Made by a program: the position numbers and the translations under genes. DNA of 24,805 nt from a bacterium. Lineage in GTDB: Bacteria; SZUA-182; DTGQ01; JAFGSM01. Shown piece by piece: positions 2,014-24,805 of the stretch; the stretch's first letter is position 1, and each line of letters starts with the position of its first letter. The notes beneath the pieces were generated by a model, which ran no database searches, was not told where the DNA came from, and saw only the letters and a list, made by a program, of their open reading frames with translations. The stretch covers positions 1 to 24,805 of the forward strand of contig JBLIRP010000062.1 of NCBI GenBank assembly GCA_049472355.1, given 5' to 3'.

Positions 2014-3015
2014 TTAAGGCTGATATTTCCCCACGCTGAAGGTGCCGAGAAAATCGTAGTTGTTGGTCCCTCGTATCCTGACACTTCCGGAAAAACCGGC
2101 ATTCGTTATCTTCACATTATCGAACGTCCAGGTATAGTCGCAGATGAGATTGGATAGATCATTCAAGAGCTCATCCCCGGTGAAATTGAAGTAGTGTGCT
2201 AAGAGCCACCTGCTGTACTTGTCGACCCATCCGGAGAGCTTCACCTCGTCCGATTCACCATGCCAATCCGGGAAGTCCTCGACATCCCATCCGGTGATCT
2301 CCACCGTTCCGCTGAGGCTCCCGCCGGTCTGGATTTGCGAGGTGATGTGAAAGAGGATGTCTCCTGCCTCCTCCTCCACCATGATCTCCATGCCGTTGGG
2401 ATCGGTTTCAGTTTTCAGGGTATTCCACGAACCGGACCAGTAGCCGCGTATATCGGGGATGTCATCGGTGACGACATCGTCGTCATCATCGTCATCATCG
2501 TCGCTGCCTCCGGTAGTGGTATAATTGGAATTTGTATTGGTGGTGCCATACCCCCAGGGAAGCCAGGAATTCAGGGGATTATACGGCAGATTGAGTGACT
2601 GATAGGGGTTGTAGCCCTGGAGGGTGTTCCCGAACATCGTCTGCAGGGAATAGTTCCCTTGAAGCAGTGCCGTATTACCATATTGAGCGCGGTACAGTAA
2701 GGAATTAGTATTGAAGGCGTACTGGGGAACCATACCGCCCAACATGCCGTAGGGTGTGGCCGCCCCATATAGCCCTGCCATTTGAGGCACGTATCCATAC
2801 ATCGAAAAGGGGGTGAGCCCCATTCCCTGGCCTAAATAAGGGATCCCATATGACATGGCGGGAAGCCCAAAAAGACCGCCCATCAACGGGGAAAACATCG
2901 CTTGAAAGGGGAAAAATTGTGCGAATACCACCGGAGCGATGCAAAGGCTCAGCCACAGAAGACTTGCGATAAGAACTATTAGAAATGATCTGATGCGATC
3001 CTTATGAAGCCTCAT
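2014..3015 (-). CDS. Secreted protein: Gly/Tyr/Met/Pro-rich N-terminal region, poly-Asp linker, acidic beta-rich C-terminal domain of unknown family
   Basis: Start revised to ATG 3015 (MRLHKDRIRS...), preceded by GGGAAGGA. Signal peptide ends VFA|QFF. Run of nine Asp at about 2476-2502. The C-terminal domain begins IPDIRGYWSGSW. Confidence 0.75.
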   Translation of the reverse strand: MRLHKDRIRSFLIVLIASLLWLSLCIAPVVFAQFFPFQAMFSPLMGGLFGLPAMSYGIPYLGQGMGLTPFSMYGYVPQMAGLYGAATPYGMLGGMVPQYAFNTNSLLYRAQYGNTALLQGNYSLQTMFGNTLQGYNPYQSLNLPYNPLNSWLPWGYGTTNTNSNYTTTGGSDDDDDDDDDVVTDDIPDIRGYWSGSWNTLKTETDPNGMEIMVEEEAGDILFHITSQIQTGGSLSGTVEITGWDVEDFPDWHGESDEVKLSGWVDKYSRWLLAHYFNFTGDELLNDLSNLICDYTWTFDNVKITNAGFSGSVRIRGTNNYDFLGTFSVGKYQP

Positions 3016-3360
3016 AGTAAAATCCTTCCCAATTCCTTCTCCCTGCATACGCACGTTCACTCCACAAGGCGGAATATGCTTAAGAACAGGCGAGATAATG
3101 CCGCATGCATACATGCCCCTGCGATCCACGAAGCGGTGCAGATCAAGGAAAGATCGGCAGGAGGAGAAACAGAATCCTCTCCGGCCGGATTTTGAGATGG
3201 GCGATAACAAATCCGGTAGAGAGGATTCTTAAACACATGGTCATTCGGGCGGAGGGTGCCTAACTGCAAACTCCTAAAAGTCCTCTTGTATGAACCTTCC
3301 CTCCGCCTTTGCTATCATCTTCCTTGTCATCATTATCTCGCCCAAGATTTGTCCAATAAT

Positions 3361-4200
3361 CTATTCTACGGTAATCTCAACCTCGAACGTACCTGCTGTT
3401 GCACCCGACGTGTTCGTGTATTCCAGGATAATGGTGGTAGTGCCGGGGTCCTCCGCATCAAAGATCCACTGTTCGGTGCCGTATGATGATAGATAATAGG
3501 CGCTGTCAAAATCAACCACATCATCGTCAAGATCATCATCGTCGAGCACGTAGTAATAACCATAATTATGGTACGCCGACAGGGTGATGCTGATCGTATC
3601 GCCCTCATCAACGGTGATCTCGTCCCCATCGTCACCCGAATCCAATTCGACATCGGCGTCTTTATATGACGTGGCAGTGGAAAAGCCGGATATCCCGCTA
3701 TATGACCCGTAATATCCGGAATACGCATAGGGGGAGCCGTAACCGGTTCCATACATACCGTAGCCGCCGTACCCACTATAGCCATAGGGGCTTCCATAAC
3801 CATAGCCGGTTCCGTAACCGCCATACCCGCCGTACATGGACTGCATCCCATAGGGCTGAGCATACCCGCCGTACCCACCGGACATGGGCTGCATGCCATA
3901 GGGCTGCGCGTAACCGCCATACCCGCCGTACATGGACTGCATGCCATAGGGCTGCGCGTAACCGCCATACCCGCCGTACATGGACTGCATGCCATAGGGC
4001 TGTGCATACCCGCCGTACCCACCGGACATGGGCTGCATGCCATAGGGCTGCATGAGGCCGCCCCCATAGATGGATGGATAGTACCCTGAATATCCAAAAT
4101 ACTGGGCATTGCACAGGTTAACAAAGACAATGGACATAATGAAGACAACCGATACACACGCTACAAATCTGATAACGTTCTTATAAGAGAAATAAGACAT
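3361..4200 (-). CDS. Secreted Gly/Tyr-repeat protein with a C-terminal chagasin/inhibitor I42-like domain (degenerate)
   Basis: RBS AAAGGAG; signal peptide ends CNA|QYF; five 16-aa repeats. The C-terminus ITVDEGDTISITL...GY...TEQWIFDAEDPGTTTIILEY...FEVEITVE fits the I42 strand pattern. Confidence 0.8.
   Translation of the reverse strand: MSYFSYKNVIRFVACVSVVFIMSIVFVNLCNAQYFGYSGYYPSIYGGGLMQPYGMQPMSGGYGGYAQPYGMQSMYGGYGGYAQPYGMQSMYGGYGGYAQPYGMQPMSGGYGGYAQPYGMQSMYGGYGGYGTGYGYGSPYGYSGYGGYGMYGTGYGSPYAYSGYYGSYSGISGFSTATSYKDADVELDSGDDGDEITVDEGDTISITLSAYHNYGYYYVLDDDDLDDDVVDFDSAYYLSSYGTEQWIFDAEDPGTTTIILEYTNTSGATAGTFEVEITVE
3811..4050 (-). repeat. Coding tandem repeat, 5 x 48 nt (QPYGMQ[PS]M[SY]GGYGGY[AG])
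   Basis: Visible directly in DNA and protein; no spacers. Confidence 0.95.
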
Positions 4201-4791
4201 TTTCTGCTTAACTCCTTTCTATGTCACTTTTAATAACCTTGATTCTGTGCTCAAAAAATCTATTTAACAATTTATGATTTTCAATTATCCTCCTTTGTCT
4301 AAATAACTATTATATACCTATTATTAAGTCACCTTTATTCAATCAATGCAATTGATTATCAAACGATTAAAAAATATTTCTGTCAAATCAATAAGTTGAT
4401 AATAGTCATTGCATAAATTATGGAATGTGAGACGATACTCATATAATTATTAAATTACTATTGCAATATTATACAAATGGATCTATAAATCATACTAAAT
4501 AGCCTAACAAACAGATATAATTAACAACCACCCCTAAAAGGGGTATAAATTATTTTTAATAGGTAATCCACCACTAAAAGTGGTGGTTTTTACAGTCAAT
4601 AAAATATTGACATTGTTTTAATTATGACTTGGCAAATACTTATTTATCTTTTATCTGTACGCTTTTTTTTAAAGCATACCATTGATAATTTATCGATTTT
4701 ATCACCTCAATAATTTTAAGAATTCAAGCAACTTTGTTAATTACCTTATGTTCTTTATGGGATGTCTGCATTCTAACCAAATAGTGTTAAG

Positions 4792-4807
4792 AGCAATTAT
4801 TATGCCA
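4792..4807 (-). promoter_or_regulatory. Sigma54 (-24/-12) promoter facing the Gly/Tyr-rich gene pair
   Basis: TGGCAT-AATAA-TTGCT; IHF-like site TTTCAATAGGTTA at 4824-4836 just upstream. Confidence 0.7.
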
Positions 4808-5224
4808 CACACCTATAACAGTTTAACCTATTGAAAACCTGTTAATATTTTTAAAAAAATAAGGGCAGCGGTCCCGGCGCATTCGACCAAATGAACAATG
4901 TCGCACGACTCAACGGGCGAGATGCCTTGCCCTTCACTGCACGTACATCAGCCTTCTGCGATACGATACAATGTACTGCCAGGGCTATGCCTACCAACAA
5001 GGCCTCCCTTCTTCACGTGCGCTGCGCTATTCTTACAATGTCACTTATTCAGGCAACGGGGCCATGCAGTCAATCCGTATGAAGTCTTCCCCGTATCGGG
5101 AGATTGGTGACGCCGATTGAATCTTTTGGATATTGCCTTCGGGGGACGATTTAGGCGGATGAAGGGTAGGGTTTACGTAATGAATAAAAAAAGAATCCTC
5201 CTTGCGAGACGATGTGAGGATTCC

Positions 5225-5291
5225 CATGAATAATCAGTCCTTGACATGAATAATCAGTCCTTGATATGAATAATCAGTCCTTGATATGAAT
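5225..5291. repeat. 20-bp tandem repeat, about 3.3 copies (ATGAATAATCAGTCCTTGA[CT])
   Basis: Directly visible; the unit spans the last codons and stop of the 5274-5612 gene. Confidence 0.95.
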
Positions 5292-5612
5292 CGAAGAAAA
5301 TAATTCATAATTGCTCGGGCACTTTGATCTCACGTATTCTTCAACCATGTCTTTTTCATCTTGGGTATCCGCCTCACCCCGGACAATGATCGTTTCAGCA
5401 TTCCTATCCACATAGACATCGAACATCTTCTCATGAACGACGATCGCCCAGTGCATGAGGTCTGATTTTTCAATCTCTTGTCTTAGATCTATTTTCCCTC
5501 TTGAGGCCTCAACAGGAGCCGAATGGATCCCGATGAACATAATAACCAGAAAAAGCAAACTGATGGCCTTTATAAAGGTTCTTTTTGAATACATTGCCGT
5601 TTTTCTTCCCAT
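5274..5612 (-). CDS. Small exported BON-like protein
   Basis: Signal peptide ending VEA; VYVDRNAETIIVRGEADTQDEKDMVEEY resembles the BON core. RBS GAGGAG. Paralogue of 5849-6172. Confidence 0.65.
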   Translation of the reverse strand: MGRKTAMYSKRTFIKAISLLFLVIMFIGIHSAPVEASRGKIDLRQEIEKSDLMHWAIVVHEKMFDVYVDRNAETIIVRGEADTQDEKDMVEEYVRSKCPSNYELFSSIHIKD

Positions 5613-5619
5613 TCTCTCC

Positions 5620-5820
5620 TCACTTGTTCCCTTCGGGATTGTTGAAGGCTACTGCCTTCATCTCCAGGCCGGTATTGAGCAAAAGCATTCTAAATGGATT
5701 CCCCTGCTCAAAAAACCGTGATTCCAAAGACTGGTAGTACGTCTCTGACTGTCGAATAGGCAGCAGTCCTGTCTTTACATGCCTGCCAAAAACCTTCCTT
5801 ACGACATTCTCAATGAACAT
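5620..5820 (-). CDS. Hypothetical 66-aa protein
   Basis: Strong RBS (AGAGGAGGAG). Tightly packed between the two BON-like genes (28-nt and 7-nt gaps). Confidence 0.6.
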   Translation of the reverse strand: MFIENVVRKVFGRHVKTGLLPIRQSETYYQSLESRFFEQGNPFRMLLLNTGLEMKAVAFNNPEGNK

Positions 5821-5848
5821 ATTGCTCCTCCTCTTTCAAATTCTGTTG

Positions 5849-6172
5849 TTAATATCCAAAGGTAAGATCGTAATTTACGTGATAATCGGATGGCGTCCTC
5901 AACCTGAAGTACTGTTCCACACGATCCTTTTCCTCCCAACCTTCGACAGCACCTCGTACTGTTACGGTTTTTTCAGCGTGATTGATGAAAACGCCAAAAA
6001 CCTTACCATCGATTTCTACCCTTCGTGCAATGGTCAATGACCCTTTCATCAACTCATTGAGATTTGAAGATCTTTGGGTCGCTTCCACAATCCTTGAGTT
6101 TGGGAAAAAACATACTGCAAGAACTATTGCAGTAATCGCCAAGAAAATTCTCCCCTGTGATCCATGTCGCAC
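5849..6172 (-). CDS. Small exported BON-like protein
   Basis: GTG start after AAGGAGGTGAGG; signal peptide ending VEA; VFINHAEKTVTVRGAVEGWEEKDRVEQY. Confidence 0.7.
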   Translation of the reverse strand: MRHGSQGRIFLAITAIVLAVCFFPNSRIVEATQRSSNLNELMKGSLTIARRVEIDGKVFGVFINHAEKTVTVRGAVEGWEEKDRVEQYFRLRTPSDYHVNYDLTFGY

Positions 6173-6393
6173 TATTTCCTCACCTCCTTTCTCTTTTCTA
6201 CATTGTTTGATTCGTTCATTATCATGGGTTACCCTTATAATTGCCGATCATACAAACCGCAGCGGGTGTGATGCCGCGTTTATGGCTCAAATCACTGCAT
6301 AAAAATCGATGTGTTGGAATCGGCACTTACGCGTATGTCTTACAACTCCTTGATGTTTTTTTTCGGTTCCCTTTATGAACTACACCGTGTTAC

Positions 6394-6410
6394 ATCAAGT
6401 TGTGTGCCAA
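6394..6410 (-). promoter_or_regulatory. Sigma54-like promoter for the BON-like operon
   Basis: TTGGCAC-ACAAC-TTGAT; a perfect IHF consensus TATCAACTGCTTG lies at 6414-6426. Confidence 0.55.
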
Positions 6411-6847
6411 ACCCAAGCAGTTGATATATGATATTGAAAATAAAGATTAATTACGAATTCGGATTTAATTTGAATTGCTGCTTATCTCGACGTGCAAGGC
6501 GATCCATAGCCACAATTGTCGAATCATACTGCTGGGAAAGGAATTGTTGGTAAGGGCTATGCGTCTAAGGAATTGCTTCGGGCCAGATGTCCCATTTCCA
6601 AAGGCTGTTAGCCAAGGGCACTTGAGAGATCTTCTGCCATGAACCGTTCCGAGATAGAGGTGTTTCGCGTCGCTGCACAGATGAACGATTCCCACAATGG
6701 ACCGTTCGTAAGTGTGAATCGCCCCATCCATGAATTGTTACTGCTTCTTCCTAATACGACCATTCGGTCGATTTTTTTCACGACCTGGAACCCGTTCAAA
6801 GCAAATTATTCCTTAATTTTCAAAAAAATAAACCAAGGTCTCCTCAT

Positions 6848-6863
6848 TGGCATGATTATTGAG
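6848..6863 (+). promoter_or_regulatory. Sigma54-like promoter upstream of the receiver pseudogene
   Basis: TGGCAT-GATTA-TTGAG after an AT-rich tract; GGAG RBS and ATG 6916 follow. Confidence 0.5.
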
Positions 6864-6915
6864 ATATGGATATAATATATAATAAAGACTGAAGTACAAT
6901 TACAGTGGAGACGCT

Positions 6916-7294
6916 ATGGTTCGGACAAAAAAGGATCAGTGGAGAAAACATATTTTGGGACAAGGGGAGACCATACCTCGAAAGGTTTTGATTGTGAAAT
7001 ATTCACATCTTCAGCCCAAATCATACGGCATTGTATTCAGTAATTATTCCGATTGGGAATTGCTCTTTGCTGCAAACGGGCTTGATGCCATGGGTCTCAC
7101 CAACCTGCACAAGGATGTCGACCTGATCATCTCGTATACGGCCATGTCCATGATGTGAGATCTTATTTTTGAAAACGCTGTCACATACGGCATGCACAGG
7201 CATCCCCGGGATTGAGCCGGATTTGAACATAATGACGTATGGTCCGAGAGATGCAAAACAGGTAAAGGGGGCTATCGCGACCCCATGGAAATAA
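6916..7294 (+). pseudogene. Degenerate, frameshifted CheY-like receiver-domain gene
   Basis: Frame 1 reads RKVLIV...ELLFAANGLDAM...DVDLIISYTAMSMM* (stop 7158). The +1 frame continues EILFLKTL...GIPGI...KGAIATPWK* (stop 7294), matching the IPVI and KP(W/F) positions of receivers. The acidic pocket, phospho-Asp and conserved Lys are all substituted. Confidence 0.7.
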
Positions 7295-7422
7295 GACGCT
7301 TGTATCGGTTTATATGAAAATAATCCAGCAATCTCTTGTTTTATTTATTTTCATGCTTCGTTGTGATCGGTAGATCATGGCCGTTAATCGGAACAATCGA
7401 TGATTGAAAGGGCCTGAAAAAA

Positions 7423-8256: not shown

Positions 8257-9570
8257 ATGATGGCTATTGACAAGGGTCCGTTGTACCTCCTCCCGGTCCT
8301 CGTGCTGACAGGGCTCATCTGCCTGCCTCTTCCCCTTTGTTCGGATCAACCGCTCATACCCCTTCAGAACGGCGCCAAGAATGAAAATGAAATCCTGTTT
8401 TCAAGACAGGCCCCAAAAACCGCGATCGAACCGGACGCATCATCGGGACGCCGCATCGTGGTCTCCGGCACACCTTCCGATACGCAGGATACCAAACAGG
8501 GAAAGGATGAAGCGGAAATTGATGTGAAACTCAACGTGGAAGGTGTCCTGATGTGGGATTACGATCAGTTTAACGGCGTGCATCTGGGGAATGCCATAGA
8601 AGGCTACCAGGTGGGCAATGAGACGGAACTGCGGCGGGCACGCATTGAGCTGGAAAGCACAATCGACAAGGACTGGGAGGCAAAACTCGAGGTGAGTTTC
8701 GAGAATGACGACTCCGCACCGGAGATCGGGGATGCCTACATAGCATTCACCGGGTGGAACGACCTCACCGTGACGGCCGGGCAGACAAAGGAACCATTCG
8801 GATTGGAAGAGCAGACCAGTTCTTCATGCATCAGCTTTATTGAACGATCCATGGCCACCAGTGCCTTTGCCCCGGGGTATCATCCCGGCCTGGCCCTATC
8901 AGGGGTTCCAGGCTCCTTCACCTGGGCCATAGGCGTTTTTGAGGCCGCTGACCGTGAATACAAAAGGGACACCCATGCCCTGACCGGCCGGCTGACGTTT
9001 ACTCCCTGGGAGCACCAAAAGCAGGTCCTCCATGTGGGTATTTCAGGATCTGTAAGGGATTTCGGGGGAGAGCCCTATGCAATCACTGAACGCGCCGAGG
9101 TGCACACGGCGGAGGAGATCATCAAGAGCGTCGAAACCCCGGCGGACGACGTCAGGCTCGCGGGTGTGGAATTCGCCTGGGTTAGGGGGCCGTTTTCCTT
9201 GCAGGCGGAACACATGACCGCATCGATACAGGCAGATGTTGGCGAAGACGCCACCTATGCAGGCTACTACATACAGGGAAGCCATTTTCTGACCGGTGAG
9301 CACCGCCCGTACAAAAACGGGAGGTTCAAATCAGTGAACCCGGGCGCGCCATACGGCGCCCTGGAACTGGTCTCTCGCTACAGCGTCCTGGATGCCGAGG
9401 ACAATGAGCGGGGCGCCAGCGCCAGGAACCTCACCCTGGGTGCCAACTACTACATAAACAAGCGGATTCGATTGATGATCAATTATATCAAGACCACCCT
9501 AAGGGATGGCGTGTCCAAAGAAAAGGCCGGTGCCGATGCCATCTCCACCCGAATACAATACGAACTCTGA
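8257..9570 (+). CDS. Phosphate-selective porin, OprO/OprP family
   Basis: Signal peptide; ELRRARIEL, DAYI, GQTKEPFGLEE...SFIERS, GYYIQGSHFLTGE, GALELVSRYS, LGANYY motifs; ends RIQYEL. Confidence 0.9.
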   Translation: MMAIDKGPLYLLPVLVLTGLICLPLPLCSDQPLIPLQNGAKNENEILFSRQAPKTAIEPDASSGRRIVVSGTPSDTQDTKQGKDEAEIDVKLNVEGVLMWDYDQFNGVHLGNAIEGYQVGNETELRRARIELESTIDKDWEAKLEVSFENDDSAPEIGDAYIAFTGWNDLTVTAGQTKEPFGLEEQTSSSCISFIERSMATSAFAPGYHPGLALSGVPGSFTWAIGVFEAADREYKRDTHALTGRLTFTPWEHQKQVLHVGISGSVRDFGGEPYAITERAEVHTAEEIIKSVETPADDVRLAGVEFAWVRGPFSLQAEHMTASIQADVGEDATYAGYYIQGSHFLTGEHRPYKNGRFKSVNPGAPYGALELVSRYSVLDAEDNERGASARNLTLGANYYINKRIRLMINYIKTTLRDGVSKEKAGADAISTRIQYEL

Positions 9571-9713
9571 CCTTCTCGTATTCGCCCATTCGGTCTTATA
9601 TTTCGTCCGCTGGGTCGAACTTTTATGCCTACAGCATAGGGCGATTGAAGGTCACGCGCCACAATTTAGTGGTAACTCACTGTAAATACTATGGTAATTT
9701 TTTTCAGATCCAG

Positions 9714-9729
9714 TGGCATGCTACTTGAT
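9714..9729 (+). promoter_or_regulatory. Sigma54-like promoter upstream of the VTC gene
   Basis: TGGCAT-GCTAC-TTGAT, about 190 nt before ATG 9917. Confidence 0.5.
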
Positions 9730-9916
9730 AATCATAACCTGTAGTCCACCGTATATCCTTAACTCGTGACAGGGGCAGAGAGTGGTTGCGGATTGGCGAC
9801 CATTCCTTTACTAGTGCCGAGGCGGTAGAGGGTATCAAATAATCCGTGTCAACAGGAGAAAAAAATTTGTCAAAGACAACAAGCAGTAACGGCACACACA
9901 GAGGAGACAGGCGCAC

Positions 9917-10636
9917 ATGATCGAGCGGGAAGGACTGCAATTGCGACACGAGCAGAAGTACTACCTTGCCCCCGCGGAGTACCGTATCCTGCAAAGCCGT
10001 CTTGCTTCCCTTCTATCACCGGACCCGCACGCAGGTCCCGACGGCCGCTATCATATCCGGAGCCTCTACTTCGATGATTTCAAAAACACCGCCCTGTTCG
10101 AAAAGCAGGCAGGGGTGCCCAGGCGCAAGAAATACCGTATGCGCATCTATGATTTCAGCGACGCAGTGATCAAGCTCGAAAAAAAGATCAAGCTTGACTA
10201 TTACATCGGCAAGGAGAGTACACGGATCAGCCGTGAGGAGGCAGACCGGATATTGGCGGGGGATGTCGCCTTCCTGGCCGGTTCTGAAGAGCGTCTTCTC
10301 AGGGCATTCTATGCGGAGAGCCGGTGCAGGCTGTTACGCCCGAATGTAATCGTGGATTATTATCGAGAGGCATACATTCATCCCATGGGCAATGTCCGCA
10401 TCACCTTCGACATCGGCCTGCACACGGGACTTGGCTGCACGGCGATCTTCGATCGGGATTGCTTCACCATGGGGGCCATAGAGGAGCCAGGGGTGATTCT
10501 CGAGATAAAGTATGATAATTTCCTGCCCCAGGCAATTCGGGGCCTGCTCCTGAGTACGATTCGCCCCCGGATGTCCGTAGGAAAGTTTGCCATTTGCAAA
10601 AAACATAACAAATACAACGATTGGGAGGACAATTGA
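9917..10636 (+). CDS. VTC-domain (polyphosphate polymerase-like, CYTH/TTM fold) protein
   Basis: RHEQKY, YHIRSLYFD, KYRMRIY, IKLEKKIK, YYREAY, RITFD, ILEIKY, GKF motifs; RBS GAGGAG. Confidence 0.92.
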   Translation: MIEREGLQLRHEQKYYLAPAEYRILQSRLASLLSPDPHAGPDGRYHIRSLYFDDFKNTALFEKQAGVPRRKKYRMRIYDFSDAVIKLEKKIKLDYYIGKESTRISREEADRILAGDVAFLAGSEERLLRAFYAESRCRLLRPNVIVDYYREAYIHPMGNVRITFDIGLHTGLGCTAIFDRDCFTMGAIEEPGVILEIKYDNFLPQAIRGLLLSTIRPRMSVGKFAICKKHNKYNDWEDN

Positions 10637-10637
10637 C

Positions 10638-11306
10638 ATGGGGACCTTGGATCAATTGTTGAAGAGCCTGGAGGCCCTGTCCTTTTCCGACCGCGCCCTC
10701 ACGGTGGAGCGGGTTGTCGTAACACTGCTGATCACCTTTGCCGCCGGCCTCTTTATATTCTATATCTATCGCAAGACATTCAAGGGGATCCTCTACACCC
10801 GGAACTTCAACATCGGGCTCGTCATGACCGCCCTGGTGACGGCACTCATCATCATGCCCATCAGTTCAAACGTCATCCTCTCGCTGGGGTTGGTGGGCGC
10901 CCTCAGCATAGTGCGTTTTCGCGCCGCCATCAAGGATCCCATAGACATCGTGTTCATGTTCTGGGCCATCGCCGTGGGATTGGCGTGTGGTGCGGGCTTC
11001 TATATGGTGGTCATCGTGGGAAGCCCCATGATCGGCCTCTTCGTCTTCGGGTTGAGCCGGGCGCATTTCGGCAGCGCCGATCCCTATCTCCTGGTGATAC
11101 ACCACAACAACGGGACCGAGAAGGAGATTCAAAAGGCCCTGCCCGCTCACCGGCTCCAATCCAGGACCGTGAATGCAAACGGCGTGGAATTGATGCTCGA
11201 GGTGCGCCTGCAATCGGAGGATGCAGCCCTGGTGGACAACCTGCTGCAGATCAAAGGGGTAACGCATGCGGCCCTCATCAGCTACAACGGCGACTATGTA
11301 TCGTGA
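10638..11306 (+). CDS. DUF4956 family membrane protein
   Basis: SNVILSLGLVGALSIVRFRAAIKDPIDIVFMFWAIAVGLACGAG signature. Start revised to ATG 10638 (RBS GGAGG), directly after the VTC stop. Confidence 0.92.
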   Translation: MGTLDQLLKSLEALSFSDRALTVERVVVTLLITFAAGLFIFYIYRKTFKGILYTRNFNIGLVMTALVTALIIMPISSNVILSLGLVGALSIVRFRAAIKDPIDIVFMFWAIAVGLACGAGFYMVVIVGSPMIGLFVFGLSRAHFGSADPYLLVIHHNNGTEKEIQKALPAHRLQSRTVNANGVELMLEVRLQSEDAALVDNLLQIKGVTHAALISYNGDYVS

Positions 11307-11373
11307 GCATCAGTGACGGCCACGAAAAATCCCGGTGGCTTGGACAATCGGTAACTCCTTAAGGAGCAGCGAG

Positions 11374-12363
11374 GTGAATATCAGAGACCTATGGAAGAAA
11401 AAAGTGACGCTCATCACGGCATCCGTTATCGTGCTGATCCTTATCCCCCTCATATGGAAGGGTGCGGAACTCCTTCAAAATAGCGGTGATACCCTTGAAA
11501 GGGGTCAGGGAGCGCGAATCGAAAATCCGGTTTTCCCGTACGAATTAAACCGTCCCTCGCAGAGATTCGAGCTGCCTCACTGCCTGGATGAGATTTCCGG
11601 TCTATCCTATCTCCCGCACAATAGACTGGCATGCATACAGGATGAGAAAGGGAAGATGTATATATTCGATATTGACAGGGGAGATGTCACGGAGAAAATC
11701 ACATTCGGGGATGGAAACGATTATGAGGATATCGAGATCATAGAAAACATAGCCTACATTTTACAGAGCAACGGCACCATCCTCACCGTGAATGATTTTG
11801 AAACACCCGACCCAGAGGTAAGAAGTTTCAATACACTGCTTTCGAGTAAAAACAACGCCGAAGGACTGGCCTTTGATGATGAAGCGAATGCATTGCTCAT
11901 TGCATGCAAGGATTCCCCCCATCTGAAGAAAAAGAAAAAACGCGAGGAACTGAAGGGGAAAAGGGTCATATACCGGTTCGATCTGGCCGAGGAAAAACTC
12001 AGCAAAACACCGGCATTCATCATCGACATGGAGGCCCTGCAAGACTCCATGCGCTATTCCTTGGTGGGGAGATCCATCCGAAGATTGATTGCGTTACTCG
12101 ATCCCCGCGAGGAAGACATCGATTTCCGTCCCTCCGGCATTGCCGTTCATCCCAAAACAAGGGACGTCTATATCATCTCCTCGGCCGACAGGATGCTCAT
12201 TGTCTTCAATCGGGAAGGGCATATCATTGCCGCCGAGCAATTGAACAGGAAGATCTTCAAACAGCCGGAGGGGATCTGTTTCAATCCCGCAGGGGACCTG
12301 TTTATTTCGAACGAACGAAGGGGCGGCAGGGCAACCATTGTGCGATGTGACTATCAAGGATAA
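11374..12363 (+). CDS. SdiA-regulated/YjiK-like beta-propeller, N-terminally membrane anchored
   Basis: EISGLSY, IQDEKG, DYEDI, NAEGLAFD, FRPSGIAVHP, QPEGICF, LFISNE blade motifs. GTG 11374 follows AAGGAG. Confidence 0.85.
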   Translation: MNIRDLWKKKVTLITASVIVLILIPLIWKGAELLQNSGDTLERGQGARIENPVFPYELNRPSQRFELPHCLDEISGLSYLPHNRLACIQDEKGKMYIFDIDRGDVTEKITFGDGNDYEDIEIIENIAYILQSNGTILTVNDFETPDPEVRSFNTLLSSKNNAEGLAFDDEANALLIACKDSPHLKKKKKREELKGKRVIYRFDLAEEKLSKTPAFIIDMEALQDSMRYSLVGRSIRRLIALLDPREEDIDFRPSGIAVHPKTRDVYIISSADRMLIVFNREGHIIAAEQLNRKIFKQPEGICFNPAGDLFISNERRGGRATIVRCDYQG

Positions 12364-12522
12364 GAGATGGCCTTTTCATCATGTCCCCTGGCGAGTTGTA
12401 TGCATGGATAAAGGGAAACGCCATTGCCGGGAGGAAGACCCGAAACATGATCGGATTGCCTCGTCCCCACGACCGGGTGCGGGATGGAGTGCAATGATCA
12501 GGAGAGTATTCCGAGGTGATAC

Positions 12523-14907
12523 ATGAAATGCACAGGCAGAGCCGGGCAGGGATGCCGTAAACATAATGTAAAAAAGAGGCGGCTTCCTGCTTTTATAAGC
12601 CCCCTCGCCATAGCCTTTCTCCTTCTTACGTTCCTGCCCGGTCCTGTCATTCCAGGCAGTGTCTCCCAGGCATTCGCAGCGCTTTACATCAACGAGTTCA
12701 TGGCGGACAACGACAGCGTGTATCAGGACCCGGCAGGGGGATTTGACGACTGGATCGAGATCTACAATTCCGGTACTGCCGCCGTGAGCATGGCCGGGAT
12801 GTATCTCACCGATGATCTCGCCGACCCGACCAAGTGGCGTATCCCTGCGGGAGTGACCATCCCGAAAAAGGGCTACCTGATCTTCTGGGCGGATAACCAA
12901 GAGGAGCAGGGCTCCTACCACACCAGCTTTGCCCTGTCAGCAGCGGGGGAGGAGATCGGCCTTTTCGGCACGGACGGCACCACCCTTGTCGACTCCGTCA
13001 CCTTCGGCGCCCAGCTTCTGGACGTTTCCTATGGGCGGTATCCGGACGGCACAGGTACCTGGGGCTTCATGGCAGGCACGCCGGGTGCCGCCAATAGCGT
13101 ACATAATGCACCGCCGGCCATTACCGGCACCACACGCGACCCGGTGTTACCTGCCGCCGGGGCTCAGATATGGATGACATGCACGGTCACCGATGACGGC
13201 ACCGGGGAAATTGTGGTAATGCTTGCCTACAATGCAGGGAGCGGCTGGGTGAATGTCCGGATGCAGGATGACGGTGAAAACCATGACGGGGAGAGCAATG
13301 ACGACCTCTTCGGCGCACCGATACCCGCCTTTCCCCAGAACACCACCGTGCGCTACTATATCACGGCAACCGACGACCTCGATGCCCAATCGGCCGATCC
13401 GGTCACAGCGCCGGCAGCGACCTATTACTATATCGTGGGGTATGTACCTCCCGTGCTCTTCATCAACGAGTTCATGGCCGACAACAAGAATACGATCCCG
13501 GACCCTGATGATCCGAACAGTTATCCGGACTGGATCGAGATCTACAATCCGGGTAATGCCGCAGTCACTATTGCAGGGATGTATCTCACCGACAATCTCG
13601 TCAATCCGACCCAATGGCGGATCCCCGCAGGGGTCACCATCCCGGCAAAAGGCTACCTGATCTTCTGGGCGGACAACGACGTGGACCAGGGCGACTATCA
13701 TACCAGCTTTGCGCTTGCTGCGGAGGGAGAGGAGATCGGCCTTTTCGGTGCGGACGGCGTGACCCTGGTGGACTCCGTCATCTTCGGCGCCCAGCTCATG
13801 GACGTTTCCTATGGACGATACCCGGACGGCTCGGGCTCCTGGGGCTTCATGGCGCCGGCTACGCCGGAGCATGAAAACAACCAGCATAACCCCCCGCCGG
13901 CCATTTCAGGCACAACCCACACCCCTGCACTACCAACCATGGTCGATCCGGTATGGGTGACTTGCACGGTTATCGATGACACCGCCGGGGTCTTTGTCAT
14001 GCTCACCAGCAATGTAGGGAGCGCCACGTACGATGTCCAGATGCGAGATGACGGCGCGCACCATGACGGGGGCAGCAACGACGGCATATTCGGCGCCAAG
14101 ATCTCCGACTTTTCCTCCAATGGTATTATCGTGGACTACTATATCACCGCGACCGACGCATCCGGGGCGGTGACCACCGATCCCCTCAGGGCGCCGTCCG
14201 TAACCTATTTCTATATCGTGGGCTATGTTACCCCGCCGCTTTTCATCAACGAGTTCATGGCGGACAATAAAGGCACCATCCAGGACCCTCAGGACCCGAA
14301 CAGCTTTCCGGACTGGATCGAGATCTACAATGCGGGTGATGCCGATATCAGTATGGCGGGGATGTACCTCAGCGATGATTGTGACGACCCGGCCAAGTGG
14401 CACATCCCTGCCGGGGTGACCATCCCCGCCGGAGGGCACCTGATCTTCTGGGCAGACAACGACGAGGAACAGGGCGTATACCACGCCGGGTTCAGGATCA
14501 ATAGAGATGGCGGGGAGATCGGCCTGTTCGACACCGGTGCAAAAAGGTATATGCCTATCGACACCATGACCTTCGGGAAACAGCCCGCGGACAATTCATG
14601 GGGCAGGATATACGATGCAGAGGGGCCCCTGGTGCTTTCCCAAAACCCCACCCCAGGCTATGCCAATGTATTCCCCCTGGGCACGCACCCCATGATCTGG
14701 ACCTTTTCACAGAGAATGGACAGCCATGCATTGATAAAGGCAATGGGAAACTGCGTAAGTGCGATCGAACGGGCCGATCCGGCTTCCGGCAAGCGGGAAT
14801 CCGCCTATCCCTTTTGGGGCAGGCCATCCGGCCGTCAATTTTCCATAGAACCCGGAGAGGGCCATATCATCTCATTCACCACACCCTGTCTGTCTCCCTT
14901 TGAATAG
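12523..14907 (+). CDS. Secreted protein with three lamin-tail domains and two Ig-like (choice-of-anchor-X-like) domains
   Basis: Signal peptide ending AFA; three copies of INEFMADN...DWIEIYN...GMYL[TS]D...LIFWADN...S[YW]GR; two MxDDGxxHDGxSNDxxFGA motifs (about 13261 and 14041). Confidence 0.9.
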   Translation: MKCTGRAGQGCRKHNVKKRRLPAFISPLAIAFLLLTFLPGPVIPGSVSQAFAALYINEFMADNDSVYQDPAGGFDDWIEIYNSGTAAVSMAGMYLTDDLADPTKWRIPAGVTIPKKGYLIFWADNQEEQGSYHTSFALSAAGEEIGLFGTDGTTLVDSVTFGAQLLDVSYGRYPDGTGTWGFMAGTPGAANSVHNAPPAITGTTRDPVLPAAGAQIWMTCTVTDDGTGEIVVMLAYNAGSGWVNVRMQDDGENHDGESNDDLFGAPIPAFPQNTTVRYYITATDDLDAQSADPVTAPAATYYYIVGYVPPVLFINEFMADNKNTIPDPDDPNSYPDWIEIYNPGNAAVTIAGMYLTDNLVNPTQWRIPAGVTIPAKGYLIFWADNDVDQGDYHTSFALAAEGEEIGLFGADGVTLVDSVIFGAQLMDVSYGRYPDGSGSWGFMAPATPEHENNQHNPPPAISGTTHTPALPTMVDPVWVTCTVIDDTAGVFVMLTSNVGSATYDVQMRDDGAHHDGGSNDGIFGAKISDFSSNGIIVDYYITATDASGAVTTDPLRAPSVTYFYIVGYVTPPLFINEFMADNKGTIQDPQDPNSFPDWIEIYNAGDADISMAGMYLSDDCDDPAKWHIPAGVTIPAGGHLIFWADNDEEQGVYHAGFRINRDGGEIGLFDTGAKRYMPIDTMTFGKQPADNSWGRIYDAEGPLVLSQNPTPGYANVFPLGTHPMIWTFSQRMDSHALIKAMGNCVSAIERADPASGKRESAYPFWGRPSGRQFSIEPGEGHIISFTTPCLSPFE
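12682..14665 (+). repeat. Intragenic domain repeats (units start at 12682, 13456 and 14239)
   Basis: Conserved at DNA level: CATCAACGAGTTCATGGC and GACTGGATCGAGATCTACAAT each occur three times, with spacings of 774 and 783 nt between unit starts. Confidence 0.9.
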
Positions 14908-16550: not shown

Positions 16551-16591
16551 GCAGATCAAAAGAACAGTGCGCTTCAAACGGAATTCGAATA

Positions 16592-17047: not shown

Positions 17048-17060
17048 GACGAACCCTTCT

Positions 17061-20909: not shown

Positions 20910-23732
20910 TCATTCCTCCTCCAGCTCCAGGGCCGCCGACAGCTCCTGAATCGCCTCATCCAATCGTTCCTGGTATCGCCCGTATTCGGCCCAGGCCCCC
21001 TTCTGAATGCACCCCTGGGCCGCCTCGTAATACCGGGTCACCTTCCGCGCGATATCGGCGACGGATTCCTCGTCCGTACCGGAGTGGTCCGCCTCCGTAT
21101 CCAACGAGGAGGAAAGCCCGTTATCCTGTATGTCGAAGATCTTCTCCATTGCGCTTGAAAGCGTCTTCCCCATCTCGACCTTTTCCCCGTAGGCGACAAT
21201 CACCCGTTTCAACTCGGGCAGATTGCTTTTATCCGCAGCCATGAGATAGACAGGCTCAACATACAGGATCGAATCCTCGATGGGGATGACCAAAAGATCG
21301 CCCCTCACCACATCGGACCCGAACTGGCCCCACAAGGTCATCTCGCGTGCGATCTTGGTCTGCTGGTCGATGCGTGCATCCACCTGCCGGGGGCCATAGA
21401 TCAGTTTTTCCTTGGGGCATTGGTACACCAGCAGCTTGCCGTAATCGGGGCCGTCGCACTGCGCACACATCCATGCGATCATATTGCTCTTGTTGTCAGG
21501 GGTGAAGGGCACCATCAGGAGAAACTCCTCCTGCGCGCTTTCAGGAAGACGCATGGTCAGGTAATACCCCTTCATGGGGAATCGGGTGTTCCCGGAAAGG
21601 TTCTTTTGCAGGGGCAGGTCCCACAGGTCCTCCTTGTTGTAGTAGACCTGGGCGTCCTTCATGTGATAGGCCTGGTACATCCTGGCCTGGATCTCGAAAA
21701 GGTCCCGGGGATAGCGGATATGGGCACGCAGGTCCTCGGGCATCGCGTCGAAGGACTTGAAGAGCCCGGGGAATATCCTCCGGTAGGTCCGGACGACCGG
21801 ATCTTCCTCATCCACGATATAGAAGGTGGTTTCACCGGTGTACGCATCGATGACCACCTTCACCGAATTACGGATATAGTTGATTATCTTTTTCCGAGGC
21901 TGCCGGCCTGTAAAGATTCCCTGGGCAGCCTGGCCGGATGAGCCGATATCAGCGGCCATGTCGTATCGCTCGGAATAGGGGTATTTATCGGTGGTGGTGT
22001 AGGCATCCTGTATCCAGACGATGCCGCCTGTCTTTGATATGACGGGATACGGGTCCCGGTCATAGGTCAAAAAGGGTGCCAGTGCCCTGACACGGTCCCT
22101 GACCCTGCGATGGAACATGATGCGGCTTTGGGGGGTGGTGTAGCCGGTAAACAGGATCTTCGGCTCAAAAAATTTTATGGAAAAGACCAGCCGCCTGAAC
22201 AGGGAGCCGATGGGCACGCCCCCGCTCCCCTCATACCGTGTGTAAATATTGATATCCCCCTTGGGATAGTCGAACTCCTTGGATTTGCTGTTCACGATGA
22301 CGACGTCGCTGACCCTTTCCCCATAATAGATCTCCGGCCGGGTAATGGCGAGCATGGTCTCGGTCACCGGCGGTATGTCCTTGATGATGAAATTGGGCAA
22401 TCCGTTCTCGGTCATGCTGTTGACCGGGCTCATGCACAGGCCGTAGCCGTGCGTGTATTTGCAGTACCGGTTTTCGAAGGTCCTGGCCTCCAGGGGCAGA
22501 TTCCCCTGATCGAGCTCCCTCACGGAGAGCATCACCTGAGTTTTTTCATTGCTGATGGTGTAGCGATCTTCGTCCACCTCCACAAATTTGTAGTACAACC
22601 GTATCTCCTGCAATTCCTTGTAGGTTTGTCGCAACGGGGTCTTGTCCCATATCTTTACATTCTTGATTGTCGGGGCATTATTGAGGATGTCCTCGAAGGT
22701 CAGGTTCGTGGATGCCGTGAAATCCCTCTCCTCGATCCGGTCCAGATCGTATCCGAGCCGGGTATACCGGATATTGTGTTGAAGATATGGCCTCTCCCGT
22801 GTCAATTCACTGGGTTCGACGATGAACTTCTGGACCGCCCAGGGCGTCAGCTCGCTCACCAGGATGGAAAGGGCGACCAGCGCACCCAAACCGATGAGTG
22901 GCCATTTCCAGCCCCTGGCCGGCGAGTTGATCCAGAATATAACGGCACATACAAGGGCGATGCAGATGATGATCCAGTAGGCGATCAACTGCGCCTTCAT
23001 ATCGGTGTATCCGGCGCCGAAGGTCACCCCCCGGTCCGAATACACGAGCGCCAGCGATTGCAGCCTTCTGTCCCAGGCAATGAGCAATAAGATGAAACCG
23101 GCCAGCACCGACAGATGTACCTTCGCCCTGCGGGTGAACAGAAAGGCGCCCCTCCTCAGGTTCAGGGCCTTGTCCTTCAGATAGACAACCCCTACCATCA
23201 ACGTGATGATAAGGACGGCAATCAGGAGCCATTGCTGCACAAAGAGGTGCACGGGATATGCGAATACGAAAAAACCGACATCCTTGCTGAAAATGGGATC
23301 AAGGAGCGCAAAGGGGGTCCGGCGCCAGAAGCGCAGGAATGCATCCCATTTTCGTATGGCCGGCCATGCACCCATGGCAATGCCGAGGAGAACACAGGCC
23401 AGGGTCAGATACCGATTCACCCTTTCCGGTTCTATGGGAACGGACTTTATGGTGTTGAGGTCCTCCGTTCGATAGGAGAGATTCCAGTGCTCCTTGGGTG
23501 GCCCCAGCTTTCTGGCCAGATAGATATTGAGGCCGGCAATCAGGATGAAAAGGGTCCCGAAAAGCACCCATAACAACCCCTTGGCCAGAAAAACGGTCCA
23601 GAACACCGGGGTGTAATTCAGGCTTCTGAACCACAATAATTCACCGTAAAAATCGGACAGCGTAATGATGCTGATAACCGCTATAAACCAGATGACGACG
23701 TTGTTGATGATGAACCTTACCGCTAGCTTCAT
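20910..23732 (-). CDS. UPF0182 family membrane protein
   Basis: LWFRSLNY, DPIFSKDVGFFVF, GAGYTD, QEIRLYY, YTHGYG, RPEIYYGE, APFLTYDRDPYPV, NYIRNSVKVVIDAY, HIRYP, YVEPVY, PELKRVIV motifs. Confidence 0.95.
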   Translation of the reverse strand: MKLAVRFIINNVVIWFIAVISIITLSDFYGELLWFRSLNYTPVFWTVFLAKGLLWVLFGTLFILIAGLNIYLARKLGPPKEHWNLSYRTEDLNTIKSVPIEPERVNRYLTLACVLLGIAMGAWPAIRKWDAFLRFWRRTPFALLDPIFSKDVGFFVFAYPVHLFVQQWLLIAVLIITLMVGVVYLKDKALNLRRGAFLFTRRAKVHLSVLAGFILLLIAWDRRLQSLALVYSDRGVTFGAGYTDMKAQLIAYWIIICIALVCAVIFWINSPARGWKWPLIGLGALVALSILVSELTPWAVQKFIVEPSELTRERPYLQHNIRYTRLGYDLDRIEERDFTASTNLTFEDILNNAPTIKNVKIWDKTPLRQTYKELQEIRLYYKFVEVDEDRYTISNEKTQVMLSVRELDQGNLPLEARTFENRYCKYTHGYGLCMSPVNSMTENGLPNFIIKDIPPVTETMLAITRPEIYYGERVSDVVIVNSKSKEFDYPKGDINIYTRYEGSGGVPIGSLFRRLVFSIKFFEPKILFTGYTTPQSRIMFHRRVRDRVRALAPFLTYDRDPYPVISKTGGIVWIQDAYTTTDKYPYSERYDMAADIGSSGQAAQGIFTGRQPRKKIINYIRNSVKVVIDAYTGETTFYIVDEEDPVVRTYRRIFPGLFKSFDAMPEDLRAHIRYPRDLFEIQARMYQAYHMKDAQVYYNKEDLWDLPLQKNLSGNTRFPMKGYYLTMRLPESAQEEFLLMVPFTPDNKSNMIAWMCAQCDGPDYGKLLVYQCPKEKLIYGPRQVDARIDQQTKIAREMTLWGQFGSDVVRGDLLVIPIEDSILYVEPVYLMAADKSNLPELKRVIVAYGEKVEMGKTLSSAMEKIFDIQDNGLSSSLDTEADHSGTDEESVADIARKVTRYYEAAQGCIQKGAWAEYGRYQERLDEAIQELSAALELEEE

Positions 23733-23887
23733 TCCCTCTCCCCGAGTATCAGAAAACCATTCACGGCCTCGTCTGTTGACCTGCTATATGCCCTGGATTA
23801 TCCCGTGATTCCCTTTCGGCTACATCCGGTCACCGACAGGCGTTTTCTGGATGAATACGATGGTGTCATCGTAAGATGGTGATGAAA

Positions 23888-23920
23888 GGCATGCATGGCT
23901 CACCGGCAGCCATGCATGCC
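23888..23920 (-). terminator. Hairpin after the right-edge gene
   Basis: 13-bp perfect stem GGCATGCATGGCT-caccggc-AGCCATGCATGCC, followed on the minus strand by TTTC. Confidence 0.6.
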
Positions 23921-24017
23921 CGTCTATTTCAACGGCCACAGCAATGATCCATTACTTCTCAAATACCGAACCATCACGTGCGGATCATCCTGTGGCCGGC
24001 ACATAGCGTTACAGCAG

Positions 24018-24805
24018 TTAGAACCAGCCCTGTGATGGAAATCCAAAGCCGAATCCTGTTTGCGGCCCAAAACCGAACCCGCCCTGGGGTCCGAAGCCGA
24101 ACCCGGCCTGCGGGGCAAAACCGTATCCGGATTGGGATGGATATCCGAATCCGCCCTGGGCCCCTAATCCATAGGCGCCCTGTGGCATGATCCCAAATCC
24201 GCCTTGCGGTATCAAACCGAACCCGCCCTGCATTGCGTATCCGTATCCGGATTGGGATGGATATCCGAATCCGCCCTGGGCCCCGAATCCGTAAGAGCCC
24301 ACCGGTGCATACCCGTACCCTGCCTGCGACGAGTATCCATAGGGACCCTGTGACGCGTATCCGAGATTGACTTGGGGCATGTATCCGTATCCGGATTGCA
24401 TCCCGTATCCATATCCGCCCAGGGACCCGTAGCCGACTCCCGTTTGCGGCATGTATCCGTATCCGGACATCGGCATCATGGAAGCATATCCGGATTGCTG
24501 GGCACTCATGCCGTAATTGCTGCCTGTGATCTGAAATGCCTCGGACTTGGTAAAGGTAATGGTGTCTTCATCCATCGTCATCCCCATTGCCCCCATATCA
24601 CCGAATCCCCCCGGGAACATTCCCCCCGGAAACATGCCCCCCGGAGGCATTCCCCCAGGAAACATTCCCCCCTGCGGGGGTTGAAATCCTCCACCCCAAC
24701 CACCGAACCCACCTGCAGGAGGCTGGAAATCCTCCGGATCAAAATCCTCCCAATCGAAGCCACCCCAGCCTCCGAACCCTCCGCCTGAGAACCTGGAGTT
24801 CTCGA
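24018..24805 (-). CDS. C-terminal part of a Gly/Phe/Tyr/Met/Gln-rich protein; 5' end lies outside the window
   Basis: The frame stays open from 24665 to the edge (ENSRFSGGGFGGWGGFDWEDFDPEDFQPPAGGFGGWGGGFQPPQGGM...). Repeats include MFPGG, GYGYMPQ and GAQGGFGYPSQSGYG (x2, 120 nt apart); ends QGWF. Confidence 0.85.
   Translation of the reverse strand, partial: ENSRFSGGGFGGWGGFDWEDFDPEDFQPPAGGFGGWGGGFQPPQGGMFPGGMPPGGMFPGGMFPGGFGDMGAMGMTMDEDTITFTKSEAFQITGSNYGMSAQQSGYASMMPMSGYGYMPQTGVGYGSLGGYGYGMQSGYGYMPQVNLGYASQGPYGYSSQAGYGYAPVGSYGFGAQGGFGYPSQSGYGYAMQGGFGLIPQGGFGIMPQGAYGLGAQGGFGYPSQSGYGFAPQAGFGFGPQGGFGFGPQTGFGFGFPSQGWF

Follow-up and report, generated by a model that had tools for sequence, protein, structure and literature searches.

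Introduction

Prion-like domains of the FUS/hnRNPA1 type have near-zero charge, and their Tyr and Phe 'stickers' are evenly spaced within 'spacers' of Gly, Ser, Gln, Asn and Pro. GGY/GGLY-type repeats are found in load-bearing secreted materials, as in suckerins, chorion, keratin-associated proteins and plant glycine-rich proteins. The bacterial sulfur globule proteins (Sgp) were described as Gly/Tyr-rich in the older literature. The repeats of spore-coat proteins are charged and rich in Ser, Lys and Arg, and assembly of this coat takes place in the cytoplasm of the mother cell. Here we describe a class of bacterial proteins, predicted to be exported, that carry long and nearly uncharged tracts with regularly spaced aromatic residues. 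Five of them (P0001–P0005) are encoded on one stretch of DNA, below called the window, which is the complete 24.8-kb contig C108 (JBLIRP010000062.1) of the genome G000. This genome comprises 3.49 Mb in 148 contigs, is 87.5% complete and has 54% G+C.

Several bacterial systems invite comparison. SgpA, SgpB, SgpC and SgpD of Allochromatium vinosum are described as small, repetitive and hydrophobic proteins that are exported via Sec and coat a periplasmic structure (PMC10386293). The coat of Bacillus subtilis spores is reported to be self-organising and built with low-complexity repeat proteins, the repeats being phosphorylated by the CotH kinase in a CotB-CotG module (PMC7821199). Escherichia coli CsgF is reported to be a surface protein that shows Phe-dependent phase separation and organises curli, an extracellular fibre (PMC10133297). 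Finally, a set of CotH, polyphosphate polymerase and DUF4956 genes was reported beside Gram-positive pel biofilm loci, with no known role (10.1101/768473). No published description of a protein class like the present one was found in a literature coverage that omits most subscription journals.

Results

Spaced aromatics and absence of charge are common to all tracts

The initial annotation of the window had listed five open reading frames (ORFs) with long, nearly uncharged, Gly/Tyr-rich tracts that share composition and not alignable sequence. Checked translations placed all five ORFs where they had been located (Table 2), and a tract of this kind was present in each of them, with lengths of 54–191 residues, 0–5 charged residues and 18–28% Tyr/Phe/Trp (Table 1). 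The tracts could be aligned neither between the proteins nor between orthologues. The label Gly/Tyr-rich was appropriate for four of the proteins and too narrow for P0004, in which Gly makes up 7% of a tract dominated by other residues.

Table 1. Composition of the six tracts of the window proteins.
Tract	Length (residues)	Gly	Aromatic	Charged residues	Main residues
P0001	137	15%	18%	1	Gly/Met/Leu/Pro/Tyr/Phe/Gln/Asn
P0002	148	31%	26%	1	
P0003, N-terminal	54	41%	24%	1	
P0003, C-terminal	102	51%	28%	1	
P0004	191	7%	20%	5	Ser/Pro/Tyr/Phe/Asn-rich
P0005	169	31%	21%	0	

The gaps between aromatic residues were compared with those in 5000 shuffles per tract. In all six window tracts the gaps were more even than in the shuffles, of which a fraction of only 0.0004–0.024 had a gap variance as low as or lower than that observed. 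Tandem DNA repeats encode the tracts of P0002 (48 bp, x4.9), P0003 (54/102 bp) and P0005 (15–24 bp), and the even spacing was also seen in the non-repetitive tracts of P0001 and P0004. Low charge together with aromatics evenly spaced in a polar spacer, the mark of prion-like or sticker-and-spacer sequences, was thus a property of 6/6 tracts. The constant feature of the class is spaced aromatics and absence of charge, not Gly.

In charge, in aromatic spacing and in the rapid divergence of sequence with kept composition, the tracts resemble the FUS/hnRNPA1-type domains. They differ in that those belong to cytoplasmic or nuclear RNA-binding proteins of eukaryotes, whereas the tract proteins are bacterial, predicted to be exported, without homology to them and known from sequence alone. 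The Gly/Tyr proteins of animals and plants are likewise eukaryotic and without homology, and many of the tracts described here are low in Gly. With the profiles of curli CsgA, chaplins, TasA and Fap no Pfam match was obtained for P0001–P0005 (E ≤0.01).

Ten of the 22 G000 proteins that carry a C-terminal tract, a small sample, end in Trp, Phe or Tyr. The final residue is Trp in 5/22, compared with a Trp content of 2% among tract residues. Such ends, seen in the window at 18999–19010 and 24021–24032, are reminiscent of the C-terminal aromatic signal that outer-membrane proteins carry.

The tract class is restricted to one order

The coding pattern YGGxYGG gave 114 hits in G000 and 9–141 hits in each of the 13 genomes of the order (13/13). 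It was absent from all seven sister-order genomes of the same class (0 hits in 7/7), and among 131 genomes from elsewhere in the domain it occurred once or twice in 16 and not at all in 115. A control with the reversed pattern was low in all genome sets.

A strict scan, independent of Gly, accepted 40-residue segments with ≥6 aromatic, ≤1 charged and ≤6 Ile/Leu/Val/Cys residues, at least 20 Gly/Pro/Ser/Gln/Asn/Thr/Met per segment and a tract total of at least 50 residues. It returned 108 non-overlapping ORFs in G000 (31/Mb), all five window proteins among them. The initial annotation had considered that the tracts might be rare elsewhere in the genome, and to this the genome-wide composition scan answers with these 108 ORFs. 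Since the strict scan leaves out Leu-rich GGLY proteins, they are not the whole class, and the number of tract ORFs in G000 is about 108–139 depending on the scan. The same scan found 6 ORFs in 342 kb from another family of the order, none in 271 kb of a sister order and one in 806 kb of outgroup loci. We concluded that the class is restricted to one order and order-wide within it.

About one tract ORF would be expected per 24.8 kb of G000. The window holds five (P about 0.003), and therefore represents a modest cluster. The genome recurs in metagenomes from marine, estuary and mangrove sediments, with 12 runs containing at least half of the sampled words.

Predicted export and the residue following the signal peptide

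Sec-type signal peptides had initially been noted in the four ORFs with visible N-termini. Sequence reading and our own heuristic agreed with this for all four complete ORFs, in each of which a hydrophobic core lies between a basic n-region and an A/T-x-A↓Q site (the arrow marks the predicted cleavage). In G000 as a whole a crude predictor gave 815 signal-peptide-like ORFs, and 139 of these (17%) carry a tract of at least 60 residues. Among the 139, 74 have at least 100 further residues and about 65 consist of little beyond the tract. In 86/139 the tract begins no more than 10 residues away from the predicted mature end.

Gln was the first mature residue in 38% of the tract ORFs, as compared with 7% of the tract-free ORFs, and Tyr was the second commonest first mature residue in tract ORFs (16%). 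All 11 members of the I42 family (see below) with a visible N-terminus have an [A/G]↓Q junction. From these features we infer that the tract proteins are exported and their signal peptides cleaved. The Gln at the mature start suggests an N-terminal pyroglutamate or a sorting cue.

Partner domains are acidic and unrelated to each other

The domains joined to the tracts were largely as first described. For the acidic beta domain of P0001 an AlphaFold2 model was obtained with a predicted local distance difference test score (pLDDT) of 85.6 and a predicted template modelling score (pTM) of 0.79, showing eight antiparallel strands. Its best structural matches were avidins, with a VIA-align Z of 12.7 and a root-mean-square deviation of 2.4 Å over 105 residues to 2c1q, and a Z of 12.5 to shwanavidin. 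Foldseek matches were weak, with a template modelling (TM) score of about 0.46. Eight-stranded outer-membrane barrels also reached a Z of about 11, but the P0001 strands carry many charged residues. On this model the C-terminal domain of P0001 is an avidin-like 8-stranded barrel, an assignment that concerns the fold and not biotin binding.

The I42-like domain of P0002 matched PF09394 above the gathering score (33.3 bits, cut-off 27.2, E 5.9e-8), with residues 197–275 covering profile positions 2–90 of 91. This part contains 28 Asp/Glu and 0 Lys/Arg. By its profile match the C-terminus of P0002 is a chagasin-type I42 peptidase inhibitor domain, and we predict that it acts as an inhibitor. The hydrolase of P0004, initially called PHP-type, was recognized by the NCBIfam CehA/McbA model NF038032 (102.7 bits, cut-off 80) over residues 275–541 of the long ORF. 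Pfam PHP itself scored 24.5 bits, under its cut-off of 26.4, and the N-terminal H-x-H motif is present (…IHCHTTNSDG…).

In the Trp/acidic core of P0003, 66 Asp/Glu and 18 Trp were counted among 208 residues, and two Cys are invariant across the family. AlphaFold2 returned a low-confidence helical model of the core (pLDDT 46.5), and no usable structural look-alike was found in the ESM Atlas, all TM scores being ≤0.34. All partner parts are acidic, with an isoelectric point near 4. Each protein therefore pairs an aromatic block that lacks charge with a folded block that is anionic.

The tracts persist while their sequences change

The initial annotation had allowed for poor conservation of the tracts in orthologues. 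We found that the presence and the composition of the tract persist and that its sequence does not. In the P0003 family, found in 4/41 genomes (all in the order) and as 4 clusters among 5.8 billion in a word-based search, tracts flank the core on both sides in all seven known members (7/7), and the core is 46–68% identical. The I42 family is present in 12/13 genomes of the order and in 0/7 of the sister orders. In the 13 members inspected, of 34 places found, a tract of 65–280 residues precedes the domain in every case (13/13), with 2–45% Gly, 21–34% aromatic and ≤4 charged residues. The repeat units of these tracts vary widely (GYGYSPY, YGYGPQ, GGGGYPY, NPYGQYQYAQ, YNPYQ, SPWQSSWQ). Even the four I42 paralogues of G000, on contigs C108, C81, C73 and C92, have four different flavours, GYGGY/QPYGMQ, YGYPQ, GGGGYPY and SPWQSSWQ, and such flavours might direct paralogues to different layers or partners.

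The barrel family of P0001 has 4–5 paralogues in G000. It was found in 7/20 genomes of the class, all within the order, and gave 36 matches among 1.84 billion representatives. A tract of 96–283 residues was present in 17 of the 19 representatives that have at least 100 residues before the domain. In one orthologous pair (contig C99 of G000 and locus L093 of G001) an ordinary globular N-terminal part precedes the barrel instead of a tract.

For P0004, length variants of the tract were found in other metagenomes (12, 12 and 66 nt), and 3/3 were in frame. In the segment 1900–4300 of the window no length variants were seen among metagenome contigs, and contigs of other runs break there at the poly-Asp and Gly/Tyr repeats. 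The P0004 orthologue of G004 (L138/L082, G004:C11 421–4589) seems to be split or frameshifted, with one ORF for a signal peptide and a Gly/Tyr tract (2395–3186) followed by hydrolase fragments (4058–4583); compared with the Ser/Pro/Phe tract of G000, its tract contains far more Gly/Tyr. Outside the order, homologues of the P0004 hydrolase have a length of ~300 residues, show 31–38% identity over nearly the whole domain and start at the domain. None of those inspected has a tract, and only one has a signal peptide. The tract of P0004 is therefore a lineage-specific addition to the hydrolase.

The position of the tract is variable, being N-terminal in P0001, P0002 and P0004, at both ends in P0003 and C-terminal in P0005. 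C-terminal tracts elsewhere in G000 were found in a Kazal protein and an S8 protease. For a survey of fusions in G000, 40 of 43 candidate ORFs selected with a lax tract filter were scanned against Pfam. Domains of extracytoplasmic type were detected in 10/40, no family in 18/40, and 12/40 were membrane-protein false positives. The partners included two S8 proteases, a Kazal x8 inhibitor, alpha-2-macroglobulin parts, a C39-like peptidase, Cthe_2159, a polysaccharide deacetylase and LVIVD/HYR. Prominent among the tract partners were proteases and, in three kinds, protease inhibitors. The idea of a portable assembly tag, put forward in the initial annotation, thus stood in one of its parts: the varied positions, the unrelated domains and the absence of the tract from outgroup hydrolases show a portable module. 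Its other part, assembly into a matrix or sheath and cation binding by the acidic domains, stays at the level of a proposal.

P0005 and the conserved polyphosphate/CotH neighbourhood

The contig end truncates P0005. In G002, G003 and G004, which belong to the same genus, an ORF with a terminal Gly/Tyr/Phe/Gln tail resembling the one in P0005 lies immediately upstream of the UPF0182 orthologue. The complete orthologue in G004 has 1069 residues, with a signal peptide, two LTD, a CotH kinase domain (PF08757, E 2.4e-67) and the tail, and its last ~250 residues are 52% identical to P0005, non-repetitive segments included. CotH gave no match in the 87.5%-complete G000 assembly, which is consistent with the P0005 gene being cut at the contig end. 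By homology the unseen N-terminus of P0005 probably comprises a signal peptide, two LTD and a CotH kinase. The C-terminus of other CotH proteins in the order frequently consists of Pro/Gly/Phe/Gln repeats.

A cluster equivalent to that of the window was found on one contig of G009, which belongs to another family of the order (C13/L199, 977–9850). It encodes in this order a 216-residue membrane protein, Porin_O_P, the P0003 orthologue, VTC, DUF4956, the propeller, the LTD protein, UPF0182, a Na/Pi-PhoU transporter and two CotH proteins. The P0003 orthologue thus lies between the porin and VTC genes, and CotH, VTC and DUF4956 are encoded together; in the window, too, the genes for VTC and DUF4956 adjoin each other. 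CotH lies a few kb from UPF0182 in G003, G004, G006, G009 and G011. It was found in 6/13 genomes of the order and in 0/7 of the sister orders, and UPF0182 in 13/13 of the order. From this gene context we assign both P0003 and P0005 to a conserved phosphate/polyphosphate/CotH neighbourhood. In 80 outgroup loci the neighbours of UPF0182 were without tracts, five hits of the lax filter resembling membrane proteins, and outside the order UPF0182 itself therefore has no tie to the class.

Two UPF0182 matches were seen in 9/13 genomes of the order; the pair of G000 (C108 and C114) is ~53% identical, and next to CotH genes only the window type was seen. The run of porin, VTC, DUF4956, propeller and LTD genes, conserved in two families, has the appearance of a polyphosphate/phosphate module linked with secreted CotH kinases.

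Table 2. Features of the window, in order of position.
Feature	Position	Strand	Description
ECF sigma factor	180-785	-	downstream of P0002 and P0001, co-directional
LTXXQ/Metal_resist (Spy/CpxP-like) periplasmic protein	1047-1544	-	downstream of P0002 and P0001, co-directional
P0001	2014..3015	-	signal peptide (…PVVFA↓QFFPF), ~137-residue tract, Thr/Asn-rich stretch, run of nine Asp, C-terminal 149-residue acidic barrel
Ala-Gln junction codons	2914-2919		in P0001
P0002	3361..4200	-	signal peptide (…LCNA↓QYFGY), 148-residue Gly/Tyr/Met/Gln/Pro tract, C-terminal chagasin-type I42 domain (predicted)
Ala-Gln junction codons	4102-4107		in P0002
Small signal-peptide protein	5274-5612	-	no Pfam family; paralogue of the next
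Small signal-peptide protein	5849-6172	-	no Pfam family; paralogue of the preceding
216-residue membrane protein homologue	7423-8052		counterpart heads the G009 cluster
Porin_O_P, VTC (polyphosphate polymerase domain), DUF4956, SdiA-regulated/NHL propeller, triple-LTD protein	8257..14907	+	by Pfam
Monofunctional catalase and Fur-family regulator	14950-17221	-	catalase without signal peptide; regulator in PerR-like position
P0003	17829..19013	+	signal peptide (…SNAMA↓QQWGW), 54-residue Gly/Trp/Tyr/Phe tract, 208-residue Trp/acidic core, C-terminal 102-residue Gly/Tyr/Phe tract with final residues …GGYGW
Ala-Gln junction codons	17916-17921		in P0003
P0004	19286..20860	-	signal peptide with long basic n-region (…SYTHA↓QGYPS), 191-residue tract, CehA/McbA-family metallohydrolase
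Ala-Gln junction codons	20713-20718		in P0004
UPF0182 large membrane protein	20910..23732	-	PF03699, E 2.7e-290; between P0005 and P0004, co-directional
P0005	24018..24805	-	C-terminal 261 residues, cut by contig end: Pro/Gly/Phe/Met repeat, short conserved segment (…TFTKSEAFQITGS…), 169-residue Gly/Tyr/Phe/Gln tail ending …SQGWF

Among the remaining genes of the window (Table 2), the LTXXQ protein and the ECF sigma factor could be an envelope-stress pair. The catalase and the Fur-family regulator form an ordinary oxidative-stress pair between the LTD gene and P0003, which is not at the equivalent place in G009. The two small paralogous proteins are encoded in an AT-rich stretch (4200–7400, 34–44% G+C) with few ORFs, which also contains a 20-bp x3.3 tandem repeat at 5225–5291. 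Homologues of this pair adjoin the P0003 and P0004 orthologues in G004 (L138, G004:C11 4707–5054 and 5311–5682). Rfam and tRNA scans of the window gave no match.

Comparison with described systems

Judged by a heuristic signal-peptide call, the tract proteins share with the Sgp proteins a Sec signal peptide and a repetitive hydrophobic composition. The class differs from them in its size of more than 100 ORFs, in that many members are fused to enzymes or inhibitors, and in being unified by spaced aromatics and not by Gly. A six-frame search of G000 for PF17228 gave no match at E ≤1, but the control genomes were silent too. A sulfur-globule host is not supported by the two sulfur markers searched, dsrA and soxB, for which the best scores in G000 were 40.9 bits (TIGR02064, cut-off 392.85) and 137.9 bits (TIGR04486, cut-off 550), respectively.

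With the spore coat the class has CotH in common, and here a CotH orthologue itself has an aromatic tail. Unlike the coat repeats, the tracts are uncharged, aromatic and located behind Sec signal peptides, and the genome encodes an outer-membrane porin. In CsgF the feature amounts to one short N-terminal segment within a dedicated secretion system, whereas here it is a genome-wide class of long tracts. The pel-linked set unites the same three families (10.1101/768473). The present neighbourhood is unlike that set in having no pel genes, in the addition of a phosphate porin, LTD, UPF0182 and the P0003 family, and in its aromatic-tailed CotH.

Discussion

The reading that we favour, tentatively and with slightly less than even confidence, is that the tract serves as a self-associating 'sticker-and-spacer' anchor, by which the folded parts would be kept within a protein layer outside the cytoplasmic membrane. 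After export via Sec, the evenly spaced aromatics of a flexible and uncharged chain would stick to like tracts, and the many tract-only proteins of the order would co-assemble with the fusion proteins into a layer, located in the periplasm or at the cell surface. The acidic folded domains would decorate this layer and face the solvent, as in a diblock polymer, and the inhibitors would shield such a protein material in a sediment that is rich in proteases. In this respect the class may be likened to protein coats built from low-complexity proteins.

Several points weigh against such a layer. We infer assembly from composition alone, and the genes so far associated with the class include none dedicated to secretion, nucleation or cross-linking. 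Repeat expansion by slippage could lengthen the tracts even if their length is not under selection. Within the barrel family, the plan of tract plus barrel is dominant and probably ancestral rather than a recent add-on, so that a portable tag is indicated there only by the exceptional pair C99/L093. Among the 20 runs listed as containing P0003 there is no RNA run, all being DNA contigs. The signal peptides were called with a home-made heuristic that also passes membrane proteins, and the ORF counts were taken from stop-to-stop frames rather than gene calls. Cross-linking of the tracts through dityrosine, as suggested in the initial annotation, found no support, because searches of the 87.5%-complete G000 (controls positive) detected neither a multicopper oxidase nor a DyP peroxidase, and the catalase of the window, lacking a signal peptide, is cytoplasmic by sequence. 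Tyrosinase and animal-type peroxidase likewise gave no match in G000, but here the control genomes were silent too.

A different role for the same tracts would be adhesion. Like Tyr/Gly-rich marine adhesive proteins, they may anchor each protein singly to minerals, organic particles, exopolysaccharide or the outer membrane, which we regard as possible though unlikely. The recurrence of the genome in marine, estuary and mangrove sediments would suit such anchors, as would the design of an aromatic-rich uncharged block with an anionic domain and the carbohydrate-related partners Cthe_2159 and polysaccharide deacetylase. Genes for CotH, polyphosphate polymerase and DUF4956 moreover adjoin Pel matrix loci in one report (10.1101/768473). 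However, the ~65 of 139 ORFs that are little more than tract fit a bulk material better, and a Pfam scan of the window genes revealed no exopolysaccharide locus. That many proteins are tract only also argues against a purely passive role, in which the tracts are inert disordered spacers or bristles that hold domains off the membrane on an uncleaved signal peptide, or confer protease resistance. We consider this role improbable. The tracts are indeed of low complexity, variable in length and fast-evolving, and in 86/139 ORFs they stand directly behind the signal peptide. But the conserved A-x-A↓Q sites argue for cleavage, after which an N-terminal 'spacer' would be attached to nothing, and in P0003, P0005, the Kazal protein and the S8 protease a tract forms the free C-terminus. 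Typical spacers are rich in Pro/Thr/Ser or in charge, and a content of 20–30% aromatics with even spacing is not needed for them.

That the tracts have no function at all, being tolerated by-products of replication slippage, is in our view very improbable. The tandem DNA repeats under the tracts of P0002, P0003 and P0005 and the free variation of repeat units among orthologues could be explained in this way. Slippage would, however, leave unexplained the near-zero charge and the 20–30% aromatics across unrelated units, the even aromatic spacing in the non-repetitive tracts of P0001 and P0004, the retention of tracts in the I42, P0003 and barrel families, and the enrichment of Gln at the first position. 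Least probable of all, to a degree that we would call extremely improbable, is a coat of periplasmic inclusions as formed by SgpA–D, with enzymes tethered to its surface. The Sgp proteins are likewise repetitive and structural and are exported with Sec signal peptides (PMC10386293). Against this, none of the five window proteins matched PF17228 (E ≤0.01), and neither dsrA nor soxB was found above curated cut-offs in the 87.5%-complete genome. Sulfur storers have 1–6 sgp genes (PMC10386293), compared with more than 100 tract ORFs here, and Sgp proteins are not fused to enzymes.

A more elaborate form of an extracytoplasmic material would have its assembly controlled by phosphorylation. The aromatic-tailed LTD-CotH kinases would phosphorylate Tyr and Ser of the tracts, VTC and DUF4956 would make and export polyphosphate as a phosphate source, and the porin and the acidic P0003 would handle ions. 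We consider this scheme distinctly improbable as it stands. It would be a bacterial counterpart, on prion-like domains, of spore-coat patterning or of the maturation of animal matrix by secreted kinases, a parallel to which we give equally little probability.

The self-associating layer thus remains our tentative choice. The window itself contributed the fusion anatomy, the spaced aromatics as the constant of the class, the A↓Q junction and the design with an acidic block, and in addition the probable CotH identity of the cut ORF and the conserved polyphosphate-CotH neighbourhood. If the tracts self-assemble, bacteria would share the physical grammar of eukaryotic prion-like domains and use it outside the cell. 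The tract would then be a modular address tag by which enzymes and protease inhibitors are positioned within a material made of protein, and microbiology would gain a new kind of envelope or matrix. Such a role would account for roughly a sixth, by a crude count, of the predicted exported proteins in a widespread sediment lineage, and would provide natural and highly varied sequence sets for the design of protein materials. The link of the class to a CotH kinase and a polyphosphate polymerase, finally, would offer a concrete and testable role for the widespread and unexplained CotH/VTC/DUF4956 set.

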